Shown here one piece after another: positions 1-13,787 of a DNA stretch of 64,000 nt (positions within the stretch are counted from its first letter, which is position 1; every line of letters starts with the position of its first letter). The notes beneath the pieces were generated by a model, which had not been told where the DNA came from, ran no database searches, and worked only from the letters and a program-made list of their open reading frames with translations. A program made the position numbers and the translations under genes. This stretch comes from Alphaproteobacteria bacterium (GTDB lineage Bacteria > Pseudomonadota > Alphaproteobacteria > GCA-2731375): the NCBI GenBank assembly GCA_016776605.1, contig JADHTB010000010.1, positions 8,727 through 72,726 on the forward strand, in the 5' to 3' direction.

Positions 1-493
1 TCTGGCCAGTTTCGTGGAACCTAATTTTTGGTGGCTGCTGGGCATCATGTTGGTGTTTTCCTGGATGTCCCTGGTTGGCGTCGTGCGGGCGGAATTCCTC
101 CGCGCCCGAAACTTTGACTATGTCCGCGCGGCCCGCGCCCTGGGCCTGTCGGACGCCATGATCATGTACCGCCATGTGCTGCCCAATGCCATGGTTGCCT
201 CGTTGACCTTTCTGCCGTTCATCCTGTCGGGTTCCATTACCACCCTGACGGCGCTGGATTTCCTGGGCTTTGGCCTGCCGCCGGGCTCGCCATCCCTGGG
301 CGAGATGTTGCAACAGGGCAAGGCCAACCTGCAGGCGCCCTGGCTGGGCATTACCGCCTTCGTCATGCTGTCGGTAATGTTGACGCTGTTGATCTTTATT
401 TTCGAGGCGGTACGCGATGCCTTTGATCCCCGCAAGGGCGCGGCGGCCGGCGCGGTGGTGGCGGAGCCGACCCAAGATAAGGCCGCATCATGA
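1..493 (+). CDS. ABC transporter permease, C-terminal fragment (peptide/opine-type inner-membrane component, YejE/DppC-like); 5' end lies outside the window
   Basis: Translation has the EAA-loop-like region and hydrophobic transmembrane segments typical of binding-protein-dependent permeases. Its stop overlaps the start of the downstream ATPase gene (ATGA). Confidence 0.75.
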   Translation, partial: LASFVEPNFWWLLGIMLVFSWMSLVGVVRAEFLRARNFDYVRAARALGLSDAMIMYRHVLPNAMVASLTFLPFILSGSITTLTALDFLGFGLPPGSPSLGEMLQQGKANLQAPWLGITAFVMLSVMLTLLIFIFEAVRDAFDPRKGAAAGAVVAEPTQDKAAS

Positions 494-2130
494 ACGCGCC
501 GCCGGACACACCCCTGTTACAGGTCAAGGATCTGTCGGTCGATTTTAAGGTCGAGGGCGGGCAGAGCCACGCGGTCAAACACATTTCGTTCGAATTGAAC
601 GCCGGCGAAACCCTGGCGATTGTCGGCGAAAGCGGCTCCGGCAAATCCGTTACCGCGTTGTCGATCCTGCAATTGCTGCCCTATCAAACAGCCTCCCATC
701 CCTCCGGCTCGATCCTCTATCGCGGCCAGGAATTGCTGGGCGCGGACGAGGCCACCCTGCACGCCGCCCGGGGCAACAACATCTCGATGATTTTTCAGGA
801 ACCCATGCTGGCCCTGAACCCCCTGCACGTGGTCGAACGCCAGGTCGGCGAGGTTTTATCCCTGCACAAAAACATGAAGCCGGCCCAGGCCCGCGCCCGC
901 ATTCTGGAACTGCTGCATCTGGTTGGTATTCAGGAGCCGGAGAAGCGCCTGGGTGCCTATCCCCATCAACTATCGGGCGGGCAACGGCAGCGCGTGATGA
1001 TCGCCATGGCGCTGGCCAACGAGCCGGAAATCCTGATCGCGGACGAACCCACCACGGCCCTGGACGTCACCATTCAGGCGCAAATCCTTGCCTTGCTGAA
1101 GCAGCTACAGGCCAAGCTGGGCATGGCCATGATCCTGATCACCCATGATCTGGGCATCGTCCGCCACATGGCCGACCGGGTGGCCGTGATGACCGCCGGC
1201 GAGATTGTCGAACAGGCGGGCGCCAGGGAGATCTTCGCCAACCCGCAACATGCCTATACCCAGCATCTGTTGTCGGCGGAGCCCAAGGGCCATCCCGCGC
1301 CCGCGCCCGCCGATGCGGCGACGATAATTGAAGTGGAAAACCTGCGCGTTTGGTTCCCCATCAAGGCCGGGGTGTTCCGCCGCACCATCGATCACGTGCG
1401 CGCCGTGGATGGGATCAGCCTGGAAGTCCGTGAAGGGCATACGGTGGGCGTGGTTGGGGAAAGCGGCTCGGGCAAGACCACCCTGGGATTGGCTATTTTG
1501 CGTCTGCTCTCCAGCCAGGGGGCGATCCGATTTGACGGCCAAAGCATCGACAATCTACGCGGCAAGGTCCTGCGGCCCCTGCGTCGGCAGATGCAGGTGG
1601 TCTTCCAGGATCCGTTTTCATCTCTCTCTCCGCGCATGTCCATCGCCCAGATCATCGAAGAGGGCCTGTTGGTGCACGACAAGGGCGGCGATTACGGCGA
1701 ACGCCGCAGCCTGATTGCCCGCACTTTGGAAGAGGTCGGCCTGGAACCCAGCGCCATGAACCGCTTCCCCCATGAATTTTCCGGTGGCCAGCGCCAGCGC
1801 GTGGCCATCGCCAGGGCCCTGGTGCTGCATCCCCGTTTTGTGGTGCTGGACGAGCCGACCTCGGCCCTGGATGTCTCGGTACAGGCGCAAATCATTGATC
1901 TGTTGCGTGATCTGCAACAACGCCACCGCCTGGCCTATCTGTTCATCAGCCATGACCTGAAGGTGGTCCGCGCCCTGGCCGACGAGGTTATCGTGCTGCG
2001 CAATGGCAAGGTGATGGAACAGGGCAAGGCGGCGCAAATTTTCGATGCCCCGCAAACCGCCTACACCAAGGCCCTGATGGCCGCCGCCTTCAAGCTGCAA
2101 GCCACCGAGGGCGGCGCGGTCTCGAACTAA
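490..2130 (+). CDS. yejF: ABC transporter ATP-binding protein with two fused ATPase domains (YejF/DppDF-like peptide or microcin-type importer ATPase)
   Basis: Two Walker A motifs (GESGSGKS, twice), two LSGGQRQR signature motifs and two Walker B motifs ([24 protein letters not shown]). 546 aa. Confidence 0.85.
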
Positions 2131-2244: not shown

Positions 2245-3363
2245 TTACAGGCGCGCCAATACCGTCTCACCGAATTGGCTGATGAAGTCATGGGTGATGG
2301 GCAGATCCGGCGCGCCGATTTGCGGGCTGACCACCACCCGGTCTATCCGTGGATCGGCAAGCAGCGCGGCGATCCGCATATGTACCTCGTCAGGCGTACC
2401 AGCAACCGCGTACCGGTTGATAAGCCGCTCGGGCACAAGAGCGGCGTGCGGCGGCATGGTTTGCGCATGGGCGAACATGTCGTAGTCGTGATGCAGACGT
2501 TCCACGGCCTCCCGGTCCTGACCCTCGAGCCGTGACGGGTCCGTCATACGCAGCACCGCCGCCACCCGGGCCCGCACCTGATCGTGCGCCCGCTGGGTAT
2601 CACGGTCCAGGCCCACATAGATCCAGGCAGTGGTCTGCACGCTGCCCGGTGCGCGGCCGGCGTCCTTTAATCCCTGATCTACCAGTTCCATGCCTTGTTC
2701 GATGAGATCGAGCGCGGAACCTTGCAGCAAGATGACGCCATCGGCCATGCCGGCAGCGGCGCGGGTCAATCGCGGACCGGTCGCGGCTACGTGTAACGGC
2801 ACCGGGGCGGGCTGCCCAAGCCAGGTTATGGCCCCTTCGGCGCCGGTTTCAAAGCGCGCGGTCTGCCCATCGAGCAGCTGGCGCACGGTCCCGACGTAGT
2901 CGGCCAGTTCCGCAATGGGTGCCGGTAACTGGCCGATATTGCGCAGCGCCGAATGGCCCACGGAAATTCCCGCCATGGCCCGCCCATCGGACAGCTCGTT
3001 CAGGGTTGCCAGCGCGCTGGCGGTAACGCTGGGGTGCCGGGTGCGCGGTACGGTGACCCCGGTGGCCAGCCTTAACCGCGTGGTCGCGGTGGCACAGGCT
3101 GCCAGCGTTACATACAGCTCGCGGCAGATAAGCTGCGTGTCTGTCAGCCAGATGCTCTCGAAACCGACCTGCTCGGCCAGCCGGGCATGGCTGACAGTGG
3201 TTTGCACCCGCTCCGTGCCCCATAGGGCCAAGCCGACTGGTTTTCTCTGCGACGTACCTGCGTCAATTTCGCTCACGCGTGGTCCTCCCCAAGGTGTGTG
3301 TGGCAGGTTAACTGTATCAGACTCGCAGGGATTCTCTGACGCCGGGGGCGCCCGGCCCAGCAA
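2245..3363 (-). CDS. LLM-class (luciferase-like) flavin-dependent oxidoreductase
   Basis: Similar to bacterial luciferase-like monooxygenases over most of its length. The track ORF starts with TTG; the true start may be an internal GTG near 3275. My base-level reading around 3298-3303 does not reproduce the track frame, so the 5' end is uncertain. Confidence 0.7.
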   Translation of the reverse strand: MLGRAPPASENPCESDTVNLPHTPWGGPRVSEIDAGTSQRKPVGLALWGTERVQTTVSHARLAEQVGFESIWLTDTQLICRELYVTLAACATATTRLRLATGVTVPRTRHPSVTASALATLNELSDGRAMAGISVGHSALRNIGQLPAPIAELADYVGTVRQLLDGQTARFETGAEGAITWLGQPAPVPLHVAATGPRLTRAAAGMADGVILLQGSALDLIEQGMELVDQGLKDAGRAPGSVQTTAWIYVGLDRDTQRAHDQVRARVAAVLRMTDPSRLEGQDREAVERLHHDYDMFAHAQTMPPHAALVPERLINRYAVAGTPDEVHMRIAALLADPRIDRVVVSPQIGAPDLPITHDFISQFGETVLARL

Positions 3364-3438
3364 AATTGATCTGTTCGTCTTTCAGGCCGCGCCCTAAGTG
3401 CGCTAAGATGCCGGTAACGAGTCAATTTGGAGGCAAAA

Positions 3439-5169
3439 ATGAGCAACGACATTTATACGGCCCTGTGGCCGCGCGGCGAAAAAACCGTGGCGATCGCGCC
3501 CCTGGCGCCGCGCCTGGATACCCTGGAAGGCAAGACCGTGGCCTTCATGTGGGACTACCTGTTCCGGGGTGACGAGATATTCCCGGTTCTGGAAGCCGAG
3601 CTGTCCGCCGCCTATCCGGACATGAAATTCGTTGGCTACACCACCTTTGGCTCCACCCACGGTTCGGAAGAGGGACGAATTCTGGCCGATCTGCCCACCA
3701 CCCTGGCCGATAACAAGGTTGATGCCATAATCTCCGGCATGGGCTGTTGAGGCAGCTGTACCCCCGCCGTGTTGCGGGCATCAGCTGCCGCGGAAGCCGC
3801 CGGCATCCCTTCCTCCTCTCTGGTCTGCGATGGCTTTTTGGGCCAGGGCGCAACCACGGCGGTGGGTTTGGGCCTGCCGAACCTGCCCATGGCCAAGGTG
3901 CCGGGCCATGTGGATACGCAAACCGATAACGAACTGCGCGAGAATCTGATTTCGGTCACCGTAAAGGCGGTGATCGAAAACCTGACCGCCGCCCCCGCGG
4001 CGGCGGTGATGATCCCGGAACCGGGACCACAGGACGTGGTGATGGAGGGCAGTTTTGAAGAGATCAACCGCTTCTTCTATGAAAACGGCTGGTCCGACGG
4101 CTTGCCCATCGTGCCGCCGACGCGGGCCAAGATCGAAAGCTTCCTGGCCTTCACCGATCTGCCCAACGATCATGTAATCGGTAAAATGCCGCCCGACAAC
4201 CGCCAGGCCACGGTCTGGAATGTCGCCGTCAACGGCGTCATGGCGGGCTGCCGGCCACAATACATGCCGGTTCTGGTGGCCTTGGCCGAGGCCATGGCCG
4301 ATCCCGGCTATGGCGTCGAGCATTCCGGCAACACGCCGGGCGCGGAAACCCTGATCACCATCAATGGCCCCATCATCAAGGACCTGGAATTCAATTATGA
4401 ACAGGGCGCCCTGCGCGATGGCTTTCAGGCCAACACCTCCATCGGCCGCTGGTGGCGGTTGTATCTGCGCAATGTGGCGGGCTTTCTGCTGCATCAGAAC
4501 GACAAGGGTACCTTCGGCAACACCTGGCGCGTGGTTCTGGCGGAGAACGAGGATGTGCTCGCGAAAATCGGCTGGCCGCCCCATTCGGCTGATTTTGGTC
4601 ATGCCCGGGGCGACAACGCCGTCACCATCTCGCGCTTCACGGGGGGCGATGTCATCGCCTCGGTCTATGGGCAGAAACCAGAGGATATGCTGCCATATCT
4701 GGCCGATGCCCTGATCAGCCAGACCGGCTGGCAGTTGATCTTTACGGTCGGCATGGCCGATGGCAGCTATACCCCGTTGCTGGTGCTATCACCCATCCTG
4801 GCCGAAACCATGGCCAAGGCCGGCTGGTCCAAGGACGATGTGCGGCAATGGCTGTTTGAAAACGCCCGCATCCCGGCCTCGAAGTTCGAACAATATATTG
4901 TCGAGTTCACCAACTTCTATTCCGGCGGACGCTCCATGTTCGAACTGGCCCAGTTGGGCAAGGCGAACGAGCTGTATGGCCTGTCCAAGGATCCGGACCG
5001 CCTGGTGCCCATCGTCTGCGACCCCATGGACATTCAGATTGCGGTCAGTGGCGATCCGGGGCGGACCAACGCCCAGGTGTTCTCGCACAATGGTATTCTG
5101 GGCTTTCCCACGGCGCGGGCGATCCGCCTGCCCAATGACTGGAAGAACAAGTTGGCCAATGCCGGATGA
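3439..5169 (+). CDS. Putative selenoprotein: an N-terminal UGSC-type domain (about 107 aa) with an in-frame TGA (selenocysteine) at 3748-3750 inside the motif GMG-C-U-G-S-C, fused in frame to a domain of about 470 aa of unknown function
   Basis: The track ORFs 3427..3750 and 3769..5169 are in the same frame (both coordinates are 1 mod 3) and are separated only by one TGA. The codons after the TGA read GGC AGC TGT (G-S-C), giving CUGSC. A SECIS-like hairpin follows directly. The ATG at 3439 is preceded by a GGAGG Shine-Dalgarno sequence 7 nt upstream. Confidence 0.6.
3751..3789 (+). other. SECIS-like RNA hairpin immediately 3' of the in-frame UGA
   Basis: GGCAGCTG (3751-3758) pairs with CAGCTGCC (3782-3789). 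An inner stem CCCGC/GCGGG closes a 6-nt apical loop CGUGUU. Total length is about 39 nt starting at +1 after the UGA, matching the layout of bacterial SECIS elements. Confidence 0.5.
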
Positions 5170-6402
5170 GTGGTGCCGGATGAGTGGGGCAGAGTGAACG
5201 ACGGACAATCTCTGTGGATCCTGCTGCCCACCGGACAGCGGGCATCGGGCGAATGGATTGACGACACCCTGCACAGCCGGGCTGACGAGCAAGGCTTGTT
5301 GGGCCGGCTGACCCAGGTCGCCGCCTTTCCGCGGCAACGGGTTGAAGTGGTGCGTGGGCCAAATGCCGAGGCCCGGGTGAACGAAACGTTCTACCGCCGG
5401 GGCTGGACCGACGGCCTGCCCATCGTCGTCCCCAGCATGGCCCGCGTGGACGCCATGCTGCGGGCCGGCGGGCGGCCGCGCAACATGGTCATGGGCGAGG
5501 CCGAGCCGTTGAAGGGCGTGGTAACGGTTGAAAAGGTCGCCATCAACGCGGTCATGGCCGGCTGCGAGGACGCGCATATGCCCTTCGTCCTGGCCGCCGC
5601 CGAGGCCTTGTTGGAGCCAGCATTCAATCTGCGCGGCGTCCAGACCACGGACGAAAACGTCACGCCGTTGCTGATGCTGTCGGGGCCGGCGGCAAAAACC
5701 ATGCACATGAACAGCCGGTTTGGCGCCCTGGGGCCCGGCTGGCGGGCCAATGCCGCCATTGGCCGGGCGGTGCGGCTGATCATGCACAACCTGGGTGGTG
5801 GCTGGCCGGCGGCGGTGGCCTTTGCCGGCCTGGGCCAGCCGGGCCGCTATACCCTGTGCCTGGCCGAGGATGAGGAGTTCAATCCCTGGGAAAGCCTGCG
5901 CGAGGAGCTGGGCTTTGCCGTGGAAGACAACGTATTGGTGGTGCAACGGGCCGAAAGCGTGGTCAACGTAACCGGCGGCCTGAACGATCTGGCCTCTGTC
6001 ATGGCCTCGGCCACGTCCGCTTTTTCCCGTCTGCATGGGGGCACGGTCGCCGTCGTCCTGGCGCCCTATGTGGCGAAATTACTGGCGGAGGAAGGTAAAT
6101 CGAAGGCCGACGTGAAGGCCTATTTGCACGAACACAGCCGGGCCCCGGCGGCGGAGTTCGAAAAATCCTGGCTGCCGGCCCGTCTGGCCGGCAAGACGAA
6201 ATTCCCCCGCTGGGTGAAAGAGGGCGTCCAGGCGGGCTGGGTACCGGCGGTGGAAAAGCCCGACGACATCACCGTCATCGTCGCGGGCGGCGATATTCCG
6301 ATTCCCCAATGCGCCTATATGCCAACCTGGGGTTTCCCCGCCTGCCGCATCGCCAAGAAAATTGATTTACCTCAGGGGTGGGACCCCTCGCCGGAGATTT
6401 AA
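5170..6402 (+). CDS. Paralogue of the C-terminal domain of the upstream selenoprotein (uncharacterised family); it lacks the UGSC domain
   Basis: Shared motifs with the upstream gene: FYxxGW(S/T)DGLPIV(P/V)P, N(G/A)VMAGC, and a collinear remainder. The start abuts the upstream stop (5169/5170), suggesting translational coupling. The start codon is uncertain (GTG). Confidence 0.6.
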   Translation: MVPDEWGRVNDGQSLWILLPTGQRASGEWIDDTLHSRADEQGLLGRLTQVAAFPRQRVEVVRGPNAEARVNETFYRRGWTDGLPIVVPSMARVDAMLRAGGRPRNMVMGEAEPLKGVVTVEKVAINAVMAGCEDAHMPFVLAAAEALLEPAFNLRGVQTTDENVTPLLMLSGPAAKTMHMNSRFGALGPGWRANAAIGRAVRLIMHNLGGGWPAAVAFAGLGQPGRYTLCLAEDEEFNPWESLREELGFAVEDNVLVVQRAESVVNVTGGLNDLASVMASATSAFSRLHGGTVAVVLAPYVAKLLAEEGKSKADVKAYLHEHSRAPAAEFEKSWLPARLAGKTKFPRWVKEGVQAGWVPAVEKPDDITVIVAGGDIPIPQCAYMPTWGFPACRIAKKIDLPQGWDPSPEI

Positions 6403-7317
6403 ATGCCCAGAGCACCCCGTACAAGCCATCAGTTGATCGTTATTGGCGCCGGCGTCGCCGGCATGGCGGCGGCGACCGAGGCCGCCCGTTGCGGCCTGAA
6501 AACCGCACTGTTCGATGACGGTCTGCTGGGCGGATTAATCACCAATGTGGGCGCCGTGCACGGCCATCCGGGGCTGGCTGAAACAACCGGCGCTGATCTG
6601 GTCAACACCATGCTGGGGGAGGCCCTGGAGGCGGAGGTGGACTACCAGCCTGGCGCCGTCACGGAACTGGCGGCCATGAGTGATCATTGGCGCCTGCCGG
6701 GCAATGACGTTACAGCACTTCGGGTCATACTTGCCACCGGCGCGGACCTGCGCACCCTGGACGTACCGGGCGAGGCAAGATTGATGGGTCGGGGCGTCTC
6801 GCAATGCGCCTTTTGTGATGGCGGATTGTACAAGGGCAAGGATGTCGCCGTGGTGGGGGGTGGCGACGGCGCCTTTCAGGAAGCCCTGCATCTGGCTCAA
6901 CTATGCGCCAACGTCACCATGATCCTGCGCGGCCGCAAACCCCGCGCTCGGCCAACCTTTGCCAGACAGGCCGCCGACCTGGGCAACATGCATTTCCGCT
7001 GGCAGACGGACGTGCGGGAAATTATAGGCGATGGCGGGGTCGATGCCGTTCGCCTGCATGATCAGGACGGCGGCGAAGAAGAAATTTTACCCATCGCCGC
7101 CATTTTCCCCTTCATCGGCCTGGCACCCCGCACCGCGCTGGCGCCGGCGGCTGCCAAACGGGACGACGATGGCGGCTTGATCGTCGATGCCGATATGCAG
7201 ACGGACCAGCCCGGTCTGTACGCCATAGGCGCGGCCCGCGCTGGTCACGGCGGCCAGGTGGCCCACGCCATCGCCGATGCCAAATCAGCGGCCCAGGGGG
7301 CCTGGCGCTCTATTTAA
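6403..7317 (+). CDS. Thioredoxin-reductase-like FAD/NAD(P)H-dependent disulfide oxidoreductase
   Basis: N-terminal GxGxxG motif (VIGAGVAGMAAA). CAFCDG redox-active motif positioned as the TrxB CATCDG motif. A second dinucleotide-binding motif VAVVGGGDGAFQEA. ATG at 6403 directly follows the upstream TAA. Confidence 0.75.
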   Translation: MPRAPRTSHQLIVIGAGVAGMAAATEAARCGLKTALFDDGLLGGLITNVGAVHGHPGLAETTGADLVNTMLGEALEAEVDYQPGAVTELAAMSDHWRLPGNDVTALRVILATGADLRTLDVPGEARLMGRGVSQCAFCDGGLYKGKDVAVVGGGDGAFQEALHLAQLCANVTMILRGRKPRARPTFARQAADLGNMHFRWQTDVREIIGDGGVDAVRLHDQDGGEEEILPIAAIFPFIGLAPRTALAPAAAKRDDDGGLIVDADMQTDQPGLYAIGAARAGHGGQVAHAIADAKSAAQGAWRSI

Positions 7318-7324
7318 AGCAGGT

Positions 7325-8641
7325 TTAGGTCTGCGCCTGGGCCCGCTCCAACAGATCAAAGCCATGGGGCACATTGGGCCGGGCCTTGGCGCGGGACTCC
7401 AGCAGCGCCGCTGCCTCGCCGCCCCGGTTGGTGCGCAACAGGGTATCCAGCCAGGTCTGCACGAACAGATCGCGCTGGGCGTGGCTGCCACCGATTTCCT
7501 GCAAACGCGGCGTCGCGGCCGCCAGATCCGCATAGGCGCCCTGGTAATCGCCACGGGCGTGGGCGGCCAGGCCACGGGCGGCGGGCACAGCCACCTCCAC
7601 CCAGGCCGGGCGCACCAGATCGGGTGCAGTCGCCGCATGGGCCGTCATGCTGGCCAGCATTTTATCGGCCTGCGCGTTGCGTCCGGCGCGGGCCAAGGTA
7701 TAGAGGTAATGCAGATCCAGGAACGGCTGCACATGTTCCCTCGTGCGGCCCTGCACATGATCAGCCAGGTCGGTCCAGCGCGCGCCCACGTCGATGCCGC
7801 GCAGTTCCATGCGCCACAGCAATGAGGCGGCATTGGCCTGATCCTGGCTGTAGGTCTTGTCCAGGCCCCAGACGAATTCATCGTGGATCTGGCGCACCCG
7901 CCGGGCATCGCCGAAATCCAGATGGAACAGCGCCGTATGCCACCAATTATGCCCCAGCATGAAGGAATTGCATTCCGCCCAGGTGTCGGACAGGCCTTCC
8001 ATCCAGGCCACGCCCTCGCCGATCCGGCCCTGGGTCTCCATGACATGGGCCACCGCATGATGGGCCCAGGGGTCGGCGCGGTTGATCTCCACCGCCCGGC
8101 GTCCCGCCGCCTCCGCCGCCCGCGGATCGTGGGTCTGCTCCAAGCCAAAGGCCAGGCAGCCGTACAGATAGCCGTTCTCTTCGTTGGCCGGCAGGATCTT
8201 TTGGCAAACCGCCAGCATTTTATCGGACCAGCCCAGATTGAAATAATGGTACTGCGCCAGCTTCATGGCGAATAGATCCCGTGGCCAACGCTCGGTGATC
8301 TGTTCCAGGATCGCCAGTGCCGTCGCCATATCGCCCGCCACCCAGGCTTCCGTGGCCTGGAACCACAGCGTTTCCCGTGCTTCGGCCACCGCCAGGGCGG
8401 GGCGGCAGCGGTCCAGATAGGGCCGGGCCAGGCTGGGTGATTGCCCCGCCTCCATCCACATCATCAGGGATGCCGCCAGAGCGCCGGCCATGACGCAGCC
8501 GGGATCAGCCTCCGCCGCCTCTATGATCGGCTGATAATCGGTGCCATAGGCCAGGGCCGTGGTGACAAAGGCATTAATGGCCGCAATATTTTCGGGCCGG
8601 TCGGTGGCGACCGCCAAGCCCTGGCCGTCGGTGAGCATCAA
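7325..8641 (-). CDS. Tetratricopeptide-repeat protein (TTC38-like family)
   Basis: 438 aa, all-helical, with repeated W/Y/A-rich TPR-like modules; resembles the bacterial TTC38 family. Overlaps the upstream M81 peptidase gene by 4 nt. Confidence 0.55.
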   Translation of the reverse strand: MMLTDGQGLAVATDRPENIAAINAFVTTALAYGTDYQPIIEAAEADPGCVMAGALAASLMMWMEAGQSPSLARPYLDRCRPALAVAEARETLWFQATEAWVAGDMATALAILEQITERWPRDLFAMKLAQYHYFNLGWSDKMLAVCQKILPANEENGYLYGCLAFGLEQTHDPRAAEAAGRRAVEINRADPWAHHAVAHVMETQGRIGEGVAWMEGLSDTWAECNSFMLGHNWWHTALFHLDFGDARRVRQIHDEFVWGLDKTYSQDQANAASLLWRMELRGIDVGARWTDLADHVQGRTREHVQPFLDLHYLYTLARAGRNAQADKMLASMTAHAATAPDLVRPAWVEVAVPAARGLAAHARGDYQGAYADLAAATPRLQEIGGSHAQRDLFVQTWLDTLLRTNRGGEAAALLESRAKARPNVPHGFDLLERAQAQT

Positions 8642-10125
8642 CCCGGTCCCGGCTCGTTGATGTTGTCCAGGGGATAGATCGGGCGGCGCACATTCTTATA
8701 GTCCAGCAGGCTGTTGTCCGACGTGGTGACGCCAACGCCATCCAGGGTAATGGTGTGCTTGGCGATGGGGGCGAAGCCAGCCCGGTAATGAATGCGGGAT
8801 TTCAACAGGACATAGCGTTTGTAGGCCGGATCAATCCCGACGGAGAGGAAAATGCCCTGATCCCAGGGTTCGTGGTGGCGGGAAACCACGACGATCTGCA
8901 GCTTGCCCGTATCCAGTACCGCGGTCGGTCCCATCCGCACGTTCAAGCCGTGGTACATGGGCCCGCGCACGGTCCATTCGCCATCGCTGAGCACCTTCAC
9001 CTTGCCCGTGACCAGCATCGGTTCGCCCTTGCGGCCGATAGACGGCATGTCCGTCTTGCCGCCCAGGGCAAGGGTTACCGTGGCACCGACACCTGCCTGC
9101 ATCATCTGTTGTACGGCGTCCGGATCCCACAGACCGCCCACGGCCACCTCATCCAGGCCCTGGCGGATCACTTCCTCGATCACGGTCATGACGTCCTGAT
9201 TGCCGCCCGAGCCGGTATTGTCCGCATGATCCAGCAGAATGACCGGCCCGTCCGTTATCCCCTTGGCCCGGGCCACGGCGTCGGCAAGAGGTTCATGGCC
9301 ATAAAGGTGATCGTCGCGATGCTCCCACATCTCTGCCCGCAGGCGGTCCACCACGCCTTGGGCGGCGGCCATGTTGCCGTCCGCAATGGTGATGCAGGAG
9401 ATACCGGCGTCCTGAATATCAGCCAGGGCAAAGCCGCCGAATACCGTTGCCGCCATCACCTCGCCCGACGCCTCGGCCTCGCGGGTTAGGCGGATCAGGC
9501 TTTTGAAGGGCTCATCATCGGTGCCCTGGCGCAGGGTCTGGCTAAGGACCGGCACCCGGCCCCAGGCCATTACAGGGTCAGCCTCGCCCCGCACTTTCGC
9601 CAACAGGATCTTGCCCACCGTGGTTCCCACCTCGAACATGTCCGTATGCGGGTAGGTTTTATAGCCGATCAGGGCGTCGCAATTAGCCACCATGGCCTGG
9701 GTCAGATTGGCGTGCAGATCGCAGGTCACGCAGATCGGCGTGCTGGGGGCTGCTTGCCGCACACGGGCCAGCAGGGTGCCCTCGCCGTCCGGCGTGCTTT
9801 CGGTCACCATGGCGCCATGCAGATCCAGCATGATGGCGTCACAGCCCTTGGCCACCGCCTCCAATATGGCATCCGACATGCGGTTATAGGCATCGTCGGC
9901 GACCGGCCCCGACGGCATCGCCTCGGCCGCGATGGGAGAGATTATTTCCGCATCCGCCTCCCGGCATAGCTTGATATAGGCCGACAGGGTCATATTGGTG
10001 GGTTCGTAGGCGCGGATCACGTCCCCGCCAAAAGCGACGCTCCAATCCTCGAACCGGGACCAGGGCGTGGGCACCGGCGAAAAGGTATTGGTTTCGTGTT
10101 TCATCATGGCCATGACCACGCGCAT
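8638..10125 (-). CDS. M81-family metallopeptidase (MlrC/microcystinase C-like, DUF1485/DUF1446 architecture)
   Basis: N-terminal HETNTFSP motif and the overall MlrC-like sequence. Chosen start is the ATG at 10123-10125, with GGAGG 7 nt upstream; the track ORF extends to a TTG at 10164. Confidence 0.7.
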   Translation of the reverse strand: MRVVMAMMKHETNTFSPVPTPWSRFEDWSVAFGGDVIRAYEPTNMTLSAYIKLCREADAEIISPIAAEAMPSGPVADDAYNRMSDAILEAVAKGCDAIMLDLHGAMVTESTPDGEGTLLARVRQAAPSTPICVTCDLHANLTQAMVANCDALIGYKTYPHTDMFEVGTTVGKILLAKVRGEADPVMAWGRVPVLSQTLRQGTDDEPFKSLIRLTREAEASGEVMAATVFGGFALADIQDAGISCITIADGNMAAAQGVVDRLRAEMWEHRDDHLYGHEPLADAVARAKGITDGPVILLDHADNTGSGGNQDVMTVIEEVIRQGLDEVAVGGLWDPDAVQQMMQAGVGATVTLALGGKTDMPSIGRKGEPMLVTGKVKVLSDGEWTVRGPMYHGLNVRMGPTAVLDTGKLQIVVVSRHHEPWDQGIFLSVGIDPAYKRYVLLKSRIHYRAGFAPIAKHTITLDGVGVTTSDNSLLDYKNVRRPIYPLDNINEPGPG

Positions 10126-10213
10126 GATTAACCCTCCGCGATAAAGTCGAGACGTTATTGCCAAGCATAATACAAAAGAAAACGCCCGGCGCGATGGCCG
10201 GGCGTCTTAACCG

Positions 10214-10326
10214 TGATTATTCGGTTAGAGCAATTCCGAATTAATGAGAATCGCGGAGCGATTCTAAGTGATTGGAAAAATTGCTCTAATTCTAAAGATC
10301 TGAGCATTTTCATTCTGAAAATGCTC
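10214..10326 (+). repeat. Copy A of the ~110-bp AT-rich intergenic repeat (MITE-like) with CTAGAGCAATT-type termini and two internal palindromes
   Basis: Near-identical to 18124..18232 and to the reverse complement of 23497..23604. Internal palindromes GAATCGCGGAGCGATTC and GAGCATTTTCATTCTGAAAATGCTC. Confidence 0.85.
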
Positions 10327-10341
10327 TAGAGCAATTATTAT

Positions 10342-11073
10342 TTAGTTGCGGTTGCCGAACAGCCGCAGCAGCATCAGGAACAGGTTGATAAAGTCCAGAT
10401 ACAGCCGCAAGGCGCCCATGATCGCTTTTTTGCTCATGGTCGCTTCGCTATCGGCATGAGAATACATTTCCTTGATCTTCTGGGTGTCATAGGCAGTCAG
10501 ACCCGTGAAAACCAGGACGCCGATGACCGAGATGACCCACTGCATCATGGCCGAGGCCAGGAAGATGTTGACCACCGATGCCACGATGATGCCGATCAGG
10601 CCCATCATCAGGAAGCTGCCCCAGGCGGAAAGATCCTTTTTAGTGGTATAGCCGTACAGGCTCATGGCGCCGAATGTCACGGACGTGATCATGAAGACCC
10701 GAACAATGGAGGTCTGGGTATAGACCACGAAGATCGAAGCCAGCGAAGCCCCCATCAGCGCGGCAAAAATCCAGAACGTGGCCTGGGCTGCGCCGGTGCT
10801 CATCTTTTCAATGCGCGCGCCAAGGAACATCACCAGTCCCAGCGGCGCCAGCATCACCACCCACATCAATGGAGTGCCGAAGATCACCTGCATCAGGGCC
10901 GGCGTATTGGCCACCGCATAAGCGACAATGCCGCTGAGCAGCAGGCCCGAACCCATATAATTGTAGACCCGCAGCATATAGGCGCGCAGACCTTCATCAA
11001 TCCGCGTATCGGCTGCCGCACCGGCCTGACCTCTGGTCTGACCGAAAACCGAACTTCTAGGATCCATTGCCAT
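10342..11073 (-). CDS. Bax inhibitor-1/YccA family membrane protein
   Basis: Seven hydrophobic segments and similarity to the BI-1/YccA family, including the typical Lys-rich charged C-terminus. Confidence 0.8.
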   Translation of the reverse strand: MAMDPRSSVFGQTRGQAGAAADTRIDEGLRAYMLRVYNYMGSGLLLSGIVAYAVANTPALMQVIFGTPLMWVVMLAPLGLVMFLGARIEKMSTGAAQATFWIFAALMGASLASIFVVYTQTSIVRVFMITSVTFGAMSLYGYTTKKDLSAWGSFLMMGLIGIIVASVVNIFLASAMMQWVISVIGVLVFTGLTAYDTQKIKEMYSHADSEATMSKKAIMGALRLYLDFINLFLMLLRLFGNRN

Positions 11074-11243
11074 TTATTCAACCCCTTGTTGTAGCAAGCG
11101 CATTGCCGCCGCTCTCTCAAGCCGCGCATTCATCTAAGTTCAATATTGGTGAAAAGACCCGATACTTCAAGGCCTTTGGTGCCAATACGAAGTTTCTTCG
11201 GATAATTCCGGGTAGGACTGATTTAGCGCCGTTATGTCCTATC

Positions 11244-13787
11244 CTATTCGTTGCGCAACAGCGGCGCGGGCTTTTGGCTCATGGCCAGCCAGGTCCCCAA
11301 CATCCCCGCGCCCACGGTCACAATCAGACAGATCAGCGTGGTCACAAGGACGCCGTGCGGCAGCCAATACCAGGGCATACCCATGATTTGCGCCACCACC
11401 GCATAGCCAGCGGCCGTGCCGACCCCGGCGGCCAGAATGGCGGTAATCAGCCCTAATAGAGAATATTCCAGGAAATAGGTCAGCAACACGCGCCTTCTGG
11501 TTGCACCCAGAACCTTTAACACCACGGCATCATAGACCCGGCGCCGATGATTGGCGGCAACCGCGCCCGCCAGCACCAGGACGCCCGCCGCCAGGGCCAC
11601 GGTGGCGGTGGCGCGCACGGCAATACCGATGTTGCGCAGGATGCCATTGACCGCCTCCAGGGCCTCGCGAATTCGGATCGCGGTAATGTTGGGATAGGTA
11701 TCCGTCACCGCCATCTGTAAAGGTAGTTCGGCGGCAGGGGTGGTTTTCGCCGTCGCGATGAAGGTTTGCGGGGCCCCTTCCAGGGCGCCGGGGGCAAATA
11801 CAATGACGAAATTGATGCCCATGGTGGACCAATCGATGCGGCGCAGATTGGCGATTTCAGCCTCGATCTCGCGGCCCAGCACATTCAGGGTCAGACGGTC
11901 GCCGACACCAATGTTCATACCCTCGGCAATGGCCGCATCGAAAGAAATCAGCGGCGGCCCCGCATAGTCCGCCGGCCACCATTTTCCCGCTACGATCTCG
12001 GTGTGCGGCGGCGGCAGGGCGGTATAGGTCAGGCCACGGTCGCCATGCGCCGCCCAGGCGGCGTGCGGCGCCACCTTGAACTTGGCCACATCAATGTCAT
12101 TAATTTTGACGATACGGCCGCGCAGGGCCGGGACGTGCTGGATCTCCTCCACGCCGTCGATGTCTTTGGCCAAGGCTTCAAATGGCGCCACCTGGTCGGG
12201 CAGGATATCGATAAAGAAGAATGCCGGCGCTTTTTCGGGCAGCCGTTCGTTGACCTGCAAATTCATATTGCCTTCAACCGCGATCACCGCCACCAATACG
12301 GACAGGCCCAGGCCGAAGGACTGCACCACGGGGATGGTCGCCGCGCCCGGCCGGTACAGATTGGTCAGGGCCAGCCGCAGCACCGCCCCCCAACGCCTGG
12401 ATCGCGGCCGAGGCAGCCGGCGCGCCAGATCGACGATGCCCAGTCCAGCGCCCAGGAAGGCCACCATGGCCGCCGCCGCTCCACAAACGAACCAAATGGC
12501 GAAACGTTGCTCCTCCGCCGTCAGGATGGCCAGGCCGGCCAGCGCGGCGAAGCTTAGCGCGGCCAGCCCCATATAACGCCACGACGGCCGGGCCAGCATG
12601 GGTGCCGCCAGATCGCGAAACAAGGCGCCCGCCGGCACGCTCTGGGCCCGGGCCAGCGGCCAGATGGCAAAGGCCAATGCCGTGAGAAAACCATAGGTGG
12701 CGGCCAGCAACAGCGGCAGCGGATGCAAATTGAACTGAATTTGAAACGGCAGCAAATCAGCCAGCAAACCCGACAGCAACGGCGGCACGCCGGCACCGAC
12801 CACCAATCCCGCGACGACGCCCAGCCCGGTCAGGGTCATCACCAACAGCAAATAAACCTGAAAGATCAACCGCGACGGCGCGCCCAGGCATTTCAGAGTA
12901 GCGATGGTCCCGGTCTTGCCTTCAAGAAAGCTGCGCACCGCATTACCAATACCCAAGCCCCCCACCAACAGCGCGGTCAGACCCACCAGGGTCAGAAACA
13001 GGCGCATACGGTCGATGAACCGTTTTAGGCCAGGCGCACCATTGCGCACATCACGGATGCGCCAGCCGGCTTCGGGAAAGCGGTTCTTGAGGTCTTCGAT
13101 CCAGGCCACCACATCGCTATTCGCCGGCAGGGCGATGCGATAGCGGTACTTCACCTGGCTGCCTTCGCGGATCAGCGCCGTTGCCTCCAGGCTGGCCTTG
13201 GCCACCATCAGGCGCGGGCCAAGGACAAAGGCATCGGCACCCCGGTCCGGCTCCCGCTGAATGGCGGCGGCAATACGGTAGGTCGTCTCGCCGACCCGGA
13301 CCTGATCGCCGGCCTTTAAGTTCAGGCGCTGTAAAAGCACCGGCTCCGCCACCGCGCCGGGCAGGCCGTCTTTAACCGCGAATGCGCTGGCCAGGTCCTG
13401 GCCCTGATCCAATTGCATGCGGCCATACAAGGGATAGCGCCCGTCCACGCCCTTTAACTCGATCAGGCCCCGCTGACGCCCGTCCATGCGGCGCGCCATG
13501 GCGCGCATTTCGGTGACCTGACTGACTTGGCCGGCGGCCCGCAAATAGGCCAATTGCGCCGGCTTGGCGGGCTGCTGGGACAGGCGCAGTTCCACATCGC
13601 CGCCCAATAGCAGACGGCCGTCCCGATGCAGCCCGTCAACCAGGGCATCCGACAGGGAACCAACCCCGGCAATGGCGCTGACGCCAAGGGCGACGCACAG
13701 CAAAAGGATACGAAAACCACGCAGACCGCCGCGCAATTCCCGCCGGGCAATGGTAAACGCAAGGCGGCGGGGGAACATGGTTTTCAA
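11244..13787 (-). CDS. ybbP: ABC transporter permease with duplicated FtsX domains (YbbP-like)
   Basis: 847 aa with two FtsX-type four-transmembrane modules and large periplasmic loops. The adjacent ATPase gene and a divergent tesA reproduce the tesA-ybbA-ybbP arrangement of E. coli. Confidence 0.75.
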   Translation of the reverse strand: MKTMFPRRLAFTIARRELRGGLRGFRILLLCVALGVSAIAGVGSLSDALVDGLHRDGRLLLGGDVELRLSQQPAKPAQLAYLRAAGQVSQVTEMRAMARRMDGRQRGLIELKGVDGRYPLYGRMQLDQGQDLASAFAVKDGLPGAVAEPVLLQRLNLKAGDQVRVGETTYRIAAAIQREPDRGADAFVLGPRLMVAKASLEATALIREGSQVKYRYRIALPANSDVVAWIEDLKNRFPEAGWRIRDVRNGAPGLKRFIDRMRLFLTLVGLTALLVGGLGIGNAVRSFLEGKTGTIATLKCLGAPSRLIFQVYLLLVMTLTGLGVVAGLVVGAGVPPLLSGLLADLLPFQIQFNLHPLPLLLAATYGFLTALAFAIWPLARAQSVPAGALFRDLAAPMLARPSWRYMGLAALSFAALAGLAILTAEEQRFAIWFVCGAAAAMVAFLGAGLGIVDLARRLPRPRSRRWGAVLRLALTNLYRPGAATIPVVQSFGLGLSVLVAVIAVEGNMNLQVNERLPEKAPAFFFIDILPDQVAPFEALAKDIDGVEEIQHVPALRGRIVKINDIDVAKFKVAPHAAWAAHGDRGLTYTALPPPHTEIVAGKWWPADYAGPPLISFDAAIAEGMNIGVGDRLTLNVLGREIEAEIANLRRIDWSTMGINFVIVFAPGALEGAPQTFIATAKTTPAAELPLQMAVTDTYPNITAIRIREALEAVNGILRNIGIAVRATATVALAAGVLVLAGAVAANHRRRVYDAVVLKVLGATRRRVLLTYFLEYSLLGLITAILAAGVGTAAGYAVVAQIMGMPWYWLPHGVLVTTLICLIVTVGAGMLGTWLAMSQKPAPLLRNE

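Follow-up and report, generated by a model that had tools for sequence, protein, structure and literature searches.

A candidate selenium-dependent redox operon that joins a UGSC selenoprotein fusion, a paralogue of its partner domain and a thioredoxin reductase-like flavoprotein

Introduction

Among the described systems, the closest to the locus reported here are the glycine/sarcosine/betaine and D-proline reductases (GrdB/GrdE and PrdB/PrdA, with TrxB/TrxA) and the low-molecular-mass thioredoxin reductase (TrxR) and AhpF systems, in which a flavoprotein hands electrons to a small dithiol carrier and the carrier to a catalytic protein. The locus is a set of three genes in a 64,000-nt stretch of DNA from an alphaproteobacterium (contig JADHTB010000010.1, positions 8,727 to 72,726), which we call the window. 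Gene 1 fuses a UGSC selenoprotein domain to a large domain of about 380 residues, gene 2 is a standalone paralogue of this large domain and gene 3 encodes a TrxB-like flavoprotein. The locus has in common with the Grd and Prd reductases the layout of the gene cluster and a UxxC motif containing selenocysteine (Sec), and with the TrxR and AhpF systems the logic of the relay, gene 3 likewise having motifs for flavin adenine dinucleotide (FAD), a CxxC redox pair and the nicotinamide cofactor NAD(P)H. One operon is the best reading of the three genes on their sequence, and to the fuller proposal, that it encodes a selenium-dependent redox relay serving an enzyme of an unannotated family, we give about even chances.

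A 2007 report described proteins containing UGSC as a selenoprotein whose function was unknown (PMC1976440). In 2008 they were counted among the main selenoprotein families in the Global Ocean Sampling (GOS) survey, abundant in aquatic metagenomes, with 255 Sec forms against 21 Cys forms, and a "UGSC/Unknown_1" fusion was reported together with the remark that the fused domains usually retain a conserved Cys (PMC2398784). Hence the selenoprotein family and its fusion to an unnamed domain are already published; "Unknown_1" may be the large domain of gene 1. A 2022 review gives the family no function and a 2026 review likewise assigns it none (PMC13188914). For the partner superfamily, the paralogue pair, the links to reductases of the TrxB-like and ferredoxin:thioredoxin reductase (FTR) types and the Rossmann-like fold of the UGSC domain, no description was found in the literature, and these appear to be undescribed.

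Results

The in-frame TGA of gene 1

Gene 1 opens with an ATG that has GGAGG upstream of it at 3429-3433, closes with a TGA at 5167-5169 and contains exactly one internal in-frame TGA (Table 1). For comparison we used 90 related loci together with the window, and 67 UGSC-type domains were scored in this set. The homologous codon is TGA in 64 of the 67 domains and TGC in the remaining 3, and the UGSC domain of Natrialba asiatica is a Cys form. On surveying the best 120 matches to full-length gene 1, about 100 were found to start just past the TGA ("[M/V]LRAS...", 464-469 aa), and 12 are full-length proteins of 578-607 aa with CGSC or CGAC at the Sec site. A search with the N-terminal domain gave almost only fragments of 102-107 aa, which end at the TGA.

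The U-G-S-C motif with its TGA-encoded Sec and a downstream hairpin of the bacterial selenocysteine insertion sequence (SECIS) type are both present in gene 1. The region after the UGA folds at -38.4 kcal/mol with a z of -2.46. The core stem CCCGC/GCGGG is unchanged in 12 of 12 sequences of the fused clade, and its closing pair covaries between AU and GC; the proteins are only 60-70% identical while the stem is invariant, and therefore its synonymous positions are frozen. In the standalone clade an 8-bp stem is found at the same offset; it is 91% paired, and 12 of 34 sequences have GC swapped to CG. Neither the pairing nor the covariation was reached by any of 500 shuffles, and in shifted registers the pairing drops to 18-51%. 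An Rfam scan of 3000-8000 gave chance-level matches only. An earlier note, made from the sequence without database searches, had called gene 1 a UGSC selenoprotein fusion, and the conserved codon, the hairpin and the full-length Cys homologues support at the sequence level that it is a genuine one whose TGA is read as Sec.

It may be added that only in the fused clade does a Cys typically come directly before the Sec; in standalone UGSC proteins the residue there is D, N or G. The G-C-U-G of the window (in 3736-3759) equals the tetrapeptide of the C-terminal redox centre of mammalian TrxR. A UGSC-like gene at 6010-6489 of another locus (L060) reads U-G-S-S and hence has no resolving Cys of the UxxC motif; if this sequence is correct, its Sec would need some other partner thiol.

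Pfam places the N-terminal domain of gene 1 in the UGSC family: residues 9-183 match PF24696 with 98.6 bits (102.7 for the isolated domain) against a cut-off of 25. The NCBIfam model NF041046 matches gene 1 with 46.4 bits, below its equivalog cut-off of 125, and by this score the fused clade diverges from the standalone proteins on which that model appears to be based. Standalone UGSC proteins differ from gene 1 in lacking the fused partner of about 380 aa. A structure model of the whole UGSC-large protein, built on a Cys-form homologue (P0137) and not on gene 1 of the window, has a pTM (predicted template modelling score) of 0.90, which suggests that the two domains are docked in a fixed arrangement. 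The UGSC fold is Rossmann-like in this model, as against the thioredoxin-like fold proposed for the family in 2008 (PMC2398784).

The large domain and its paralogue

Gene 2 aligns by BLASTP with residues ~208-570 of gene 1 over 372 columns at 31% identity (E 7e-34). The two share the blocks GWSDGLPIVPP/GWTDGLPIVVP and NGVMAGC/NAVMAGC (gene 1/gene 2), and gene 2 has no UGSC match in Pfam or NCBIfam; both the paralogy and the missing UGSC domain had been read correctly from the letters. Neither copy of the large domain in the window has any Pfam or NCBIfam match at E up to 10, and the same holds for distant members from Robertmurraya, Natrialba and Nitrosocosmicus and for the tandem forms. Profile searches of the sequences in the Protein Data Bank (PDB) also found nothing, in keeping with the initial failure to place the paralogues in a family. 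The domain is nevertheless widespread: more than 4,300 clusters at 90% identity lie close to gene 2, and with an E limit of 1e-3 a profile search retrieved 7,162 clusters (50% identity), of 1e-30 2,003. More than 590 stretches of species-representative genomes contain it, and its hosts are Alpha-, Beta- and Gammaproteobacteria, Dehalococcoidia, Binatia, Rokubacteria, Methylomirabilota, Acidimicrobiia, Bacillaceae, haloarchaea and Thaumarchaeota.

Conservation was computed over 105 domain sequences and residues are numbered as in gene 2. Near-invariant are D81-G-L-P84, P88, P113, N126, V128-M-A-G-C132, G172-P173, N194, G198-R199, N207, G210, E233, W240, G248 and G373, and both paralogues of the window retain the full set. 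Conservation of the N(G/A)VMAGC Cys reaches 99% in the superfamily, which makes this residue a reasonable candidate for a reactive thiol. As modelled, Cys132 of gene 2 falls in a short loop where helix 134-147 begins, in a helix-loop-helix; the N-terminus of a helix is a position typical of reactive thiolates. The earlier suggestion that this Cys partners the Sec holds as far as the thiol is plausible, but such a partner need not be invoked since a resolving Cys is already part of the UGSC motif (UxxC).

A pyruvoyl-forming cleavage at MAG/C was also considered. Such sites occur in a strand-turn context, and the modelled helix-loop-helix around the invariant Cys disfavours it.

Against the PDB, Foldseek gave weak matches only, to class I fumarate hydratase (E 5.6e-4), Toblerone-fold amidohydrolases, CyuA and PrpD/IRG1. 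No significant global fold match to class I (Fe-S) fumarate hydratase or to Toblerone-fold hydrolases was found in this comparison.

Linkage between the domains and to disulfide reductases

The linkage of UGSC to the large domain is conserved. In about 49 of 82 species-level loci, UGSC is fused to a large-domain gene or lies within a few kb of it, and these include Natrialba (Cys form) and Robertmurraya (Sec form). Both orders of fusion exist, UGSC-large in the window and in the Cys forms and large-UGSC in P0387 and P0388. On examining the 14 orthologous loci that have enough flank (the window among them), gene 2 was found with the fused gene 1 in all 14. It is adjacent in 12 of them; in the other two (L001 and L088) the genes are ~1.8 kb apart on opposite strands. 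Single-chain large-large proteins were seen in P0369, P0395, P0425 and P0448, and there is one single-chain fusion of gene 1 and gene 2 (P0140).

Linkage or fusion to disulfide reductases recurs. In 8 of the 14 orthologous loci the gene immediately after gene 2 is TrxB-like (the window, L086, L089, L090, L003, L006, L007 and L009). Two metagenomic cluster representatives (P0418 and P0430) have the large domain followed by a C-terminal FeThRed_B domain (PF02943, ~61 bits), which is the catalytic chain of FTR. This domain has three CxC motifs in both proteins, along with a below-cut-off match to the NCBIfam 'FtrB family double-selenoprotein'. The observations support a disulfide-reductase partner as a recurring theme of the family.

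Gene 3 carries the motifs of thioredoxin reductase that had been attributed to it, namely GAGVAG for FAD, the redox pair C135-A-F-C138 and GGGDGA for NAD(P)H. It scores 125 bits against Pyr_redox_2, 166 bits against TIGR03140 (AhpF) and 231.7 bits against TIGR01292 (thioredoxin-disulfide reductase). The last value is below the equivalog cut-off of 343.45, hence we call gene 3 TrxB-like and not demonstrably a housekeeping TrxB. Solved thioredoxin reductases are matched at ~160 bits, and gene 3 was aligned to the TrxR chain 7aaw_A. The motif SQC-A-[F/Y/W/H]-C is found in 6 of 7 distinct operon-linked relatives of gene 3, the seventh (L009) having C-D-W-C. In the TrxR and AhpF systems the flavoprotein serves a thioredoxin or a peroxiredoxin; neither is present here, and the presumed acceptor is the Rossmann-like UxxC domain. 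The CxxC of gene 3 differs too, being C-A-F-C with an aromatic residue that is common to most operon-linked copies. No thioredoxin gene was found among the Pfam-annotated neighbours within 10 kb.

Structure of the cassette and its flanks

The three genes are co-directional, and the features are collected in Table 1. Stop and start codons had been read as adjacent at both junctions. This stands as the letters are read, with TGA/GTG at 5169/5170 and TAA/ATG at 6402/6403, the latter with a GGAG 6 nt before the ATG. The start of gene 2 is ambiguous among GTG codons at 5170, 5173 and 5194; since most homologues are 402 aa long it is probably the one at 5194, in which case the first junction may be a 24-nt spacer and not an abutment. 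Co-transcription would fit the conservation of the cassette and the terminator-like sites, which are not enriched over shuffles (5 found, 3.9 expected). In a relative that is 88% identical (L086), the three-gene cassette is kept and the upstream flank is swapped for a methyltransferase and transposases, which supports that the three genes travel together when flanks change.

Table 1. Positions of the features of the three-gene locus and its divergent neighbour in the window
Feature	Positions	Strand	Details
Gene 1, UGSC (seleno)protein domain + large domain	3439..5169	+	576 aa; Sec104; single in-frame TGA; Pfam UGSC
UGSC domain, residues 9-183	3463..3987	+	Rossmann-like alpha/beta in the model; redox motif at end of strand 3/start of helix 3
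Selenocysteine codon TGA, Sec104	3748..3750	+	context GMGC-U-GSC-TPAVLR (GMGC-TGA-GSC at 3736-3759)
SECIS-like hairpin	3751..3789	+	core stem 3763-3767/3774-3778 (CCCGC/GCGGG); loop CGUGUU; lower stem 3751-3758/3782-3789
Large domain of gene 1, residues ~200-576	4036..5166	+	DGLP 4096-4107; invariant Cys271 4249-4251
Gene 2, standalone large-domain paralogue	5170..6402	+	410-aa open reading frame; invariant Cys132 5563-5565
Gene 3, low-molecular-mass thioredoxin-reductase-like flavoprotein	6403..7317	+	304 aa; FAD 6445-6462; CAFC 6805-6816; NAD(P)H 6856-6873
LLM (luciferase-like) oxidoreductase, divergent	2245..3363	-	Pfam Bac_luciferase 159 bits; likely start 3276

The divergent LLM oxidoreductase had been placed 75 bp from gene 1. 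This spacing assumes a TTG start of its open reading frame (ORF) at 3363; the annotation of an identical contig starts the gene 29 codons later, giving a spacer of 162 bp. Neighbour genes were counted over 83 loci, the window included. An LLM gene is present in the flanks of 17 of them and the cassette of L086 is without one, so it is a recurrent but dispensable neighbour. The other common neighbours are a Bug/TctC binding protein (17), a short-chain dehydrogenase/reductase (SDR, 15), CoA-transferase III (14), enoyl-CoA hydratase (11), acyl-CoA dehydrogenase (11) and a family-5 ABC binding protein (9), followed by amidase (7), amidohydrolase_2 (6) and MmgE/PrpD (5). In Robertmurraya sp. 2P01SA (NZ_CP154845.1; L027, 9500-11122), a standalone Sec-type UGSC gene (GVGD-TGA-GSC) is directly upstream of a large-domain gene. 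The cluster also has a PrpR-type sigma-54 activator, a thiolase, an enoyl-CoA hydratase, MmgE/PrpD, a TRAP transporter, an Ldh_2 dehydrogenase and a thioesterase.

Two minus-strand ORFs over genes 1 and 2, at 3781-4602 (273 aa) and 4789-6036 (415 aa), were rejected as genes. The high GC and the conservation of the sense strand mark them as artefacts, and their equivalents cluster across loci. Converging on gene 3 on the minus strand (window 7325-10164) are a 438-aa gene with weak matches to the tetratricopeptide repeat and an MlrC-like M81 peptidase gene. MlrC is retained near the cassette in L086, and an MlrC gene abuts the large-domain gene in a metagenome-assembled genome of Poribacteria (L037). 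Upstream of the LLM gene (window 14-2130 and beyond; L083, 1-6958) is a Dpp/Opp-type ABC importer with two family-5 binding proteins, two permeases and a fused double ATPase. The GC content dips to 0.535-0.57 at window 9500-11500, around a Bax1-I family gene (10342-11073), and is ~0.63 elsewhere. Window 24701-44810 is ordinary chromosome with ClpB, HisRS, RF-1, IspG, a RodZ-like gene, PtsP, aspartokinase and FtsZ. In L052 (16214-18815) a second, apparently frameshifted fused gene 1 was found in three tblastn pieces; it is followed by a TrxB-like gene and has no gene 2, which points either to a cassette in decay or to a mistake in the assembly.

Discussion

The relay that we propose would begin at gene 3, whose FAD, CAFC dithiol and NAD(P)H site would, by the chemistry of its family, take electrons from NAD(P)H. 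The flavoprotein would then reduce a selenenylsulfide of U104-x-x-C107 in the UGSC domain of gene 1, so that this domain would be a Rossmann-like carrier in the place of thioredoxin. Lastly, the selenol/thiol pair would act in the active site of the large domain or re-reduce it. The putative site comprises the D of DGLP, the C of MAGC at the helix N-terminus, N, GR, E and W. The large domain of gene 1 and gene 2 probably form the catalytic unit together, as a pseudo-symmetric pair, because both paralogues keep the conserved set and single-chain large-large fusions exist. The likeliest chemistry would be a reductive or nucleophile-assisted conversion of a small carboxylate, acyl-CoA or amide. 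A substrate of this class is probable from gene context, as the neighbours include CoA-transferase III, enoyl-CoA hydratase, acyl-CoA dehydrogenase, SDR, MmgE/PrpD, amidohydrolase and TRAP, Bug and Dpp transporters. The comparison shows the Sec recoding, the paralogy and the linkages, and from these we infer which way electrons flow, the heteromer and the kind of substrate. The FTR-domain fusions P0418 and P0430 would offer an alternative electron input into apparently the same relay, the window having an NAD(P)H flavoprotein in place of their FTR domain.

Several observations weigh against this proposal. Around 40% of the large-domain loci have no UGSC gene within 10 kb. The TrxB-like gene is missing in 6 of the 14 orthologous loci (L001, L088, L002, L004, L005 and L010) and was seen at no examined locus outside the fused clade, standalone-clade loci included; a tblastn search of the 90 loci found no FTR-like gene. 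It follows that the system does not require a reductase of its own; a housekeeping one may serve instead, or redox turnover may not be needed. The weak fold likeness of the large domain points to non-redox hydro-lyases and hydrolases. Finally, the 64-kb window holds no tRNA-Sec (it has no tRNA) and no sel gene among the ORFs scanned.

The earlier note had drawn a parallel with the glycine/betaine/proline reductases, and a functional analogue of these Stickland-type enzymes may be regarded as an unlikely sub-case of the relay. In it UGSC would act as PrdB/GrdB with Sec attacking a substrate carbon, the large domain as PrdA/GrdE, the reaction would be a reductive cleavage of a C-N or C-X bond and the TrxB-like protein would recycle the selenenylsulfide. 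The layout is alike in combining a Sec protein with catalytic subunits and a TrxR gene, and PrdB and UGSC proteins both use a UxxC Sec motif (PMC2398784, Table 2). The predominance of Sec over Cys in the UGSC domains is what is expected for Sec as a catalytic nucleophile, and amidase, amidohydrolase and peptide-transporter genes are among the neighbours. However, at E up to 10 none of three UGSC domains matches PF07355 (GRDB, the selenoprotein B/PrdB family) and neither large domain matches PF09338 (the GrdE/PrdA pyruvoyl proprotein). No GrdA, GrdC/GrdD or PrdC-F is found among the Pfam-annotated neighbours within 10 kb, nor a thioredoxin gene, and the setting of the invariant Cys is unlike that of pyruvoyl sites. 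The hosts also differ, being mostly aerobic Proteobacteria, Chloroflexota and Binatia with some archaea. By sequence, membership in the glycine/betaine/proline reductases fails on every testable feature and the resemblance is one of layout and UxxC motif only. The reading of the locus as a redox module remains likely and homology to the Stickland reductases is not supported; the linkage to TrxB-like genes holds within the fused clade in the loci named above, the FTR fusions add a separate link to a disulfide reductase, and the linkage to UGSC holds in the majority of loci.

It is still less likely that the system is a non-redox hydro-lyase or isomerase acting on carboxylates, with Sec104, Cys107 (and Cys103) and the large-domain Cys ligating a metal or Fe-S cluster and the TrxB-like protein as an accessory, for example in repair or activation. 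The best fold matches, though weak, are to Fe-S hydro-lyases and related carboxylate enzymes, the neighbours MmgE/PrpD, ILVD_EDD and enoyl-CoA hydratase fit it, and many loci have no TrxB-like gene. An antioxidant or repair system like AhpF/AhpC or methionine sulfoxide reductase (Msr) is improbable. Here the large-domain Cys would reduce a peroxide, sulfoxide or disulfide with UGSC as a dedicated selenium thioredoxin. The relationship of gene 3 to AhpF is consistent with this, as is the single invariant Cys at a helix N-terminus, which is typical of 1-Cys reductases. Most marine selenoproteins are held to be thiol oxidoreductases in the published view (PMC2398784), which also agrees. Yet the neighbours are catabolic, transport and regulatory genes (a PrpR-type activator) and not stress genes, a two-copy catalytic module of 380 aa in which Arg, Asp, Glu and Asn are conserved points to a specific organic substrate, and there is no similarity to peroxiredoxins, Msr or glutathione peroxidases. 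The reading of the TGA as a true stop, with 3439-3750 and 3769-5169 as two separate genes and no selenoprotein, is how automated pipelines annotate the locus and agrees with the lack of visible Sec machinery in the window, but it is effectively refuted and was rejected, since the frame is continuous with unchanged spacing, full-length Cys homologues exist, the TGA keeps to one catalytic position across phyla, the covarying hairpin is conserved with its synonymous sites frozen, and the Pfam UGSC model spans the TGA.

Returning to the selenium-dependent relay, we put forward tentatively, as something possible rather than probable, that UGSC and the large domain (~7,160 clusters at 50% identity, which neither Pfam nor NCBIfam models and of which no relative has a solved structure) make up an unrecognised and widespread class of selenium-dependent enzymes of aerobic bacteria and some archaea. 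In such enzymes a Rossmann-like Sec carrier or nucleophile would work with a catalytic dimer of new fold and would be recharged by TrxR-like or FTR-like reductases. If true, the class would be a functional counterpart of the anaerobic Stickland reductases with no evolutionary relationship to them, and one of the most abundant orphan selenoprotein families of aquatic metagenomes would gain a function. Three handles are provided by the locus: a conserved catalytic partner family that is modelled in no database, a paralogous pair that suggests a heteromer, and two independent links to disulfide reductases that suggest a route for recycling the selenium centre. A family model and a structure would be worthwhile for the large-domain superfamily, which numbers over 7,000 clusters. 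Robertmurraya sp. 2P01SA, a cultured member of Bacillaceae with a regulated carboxylate-catabolic cluster, is a possible experimental model, and with these handles the orphan selenoprotein becomes a testable enzyme system.

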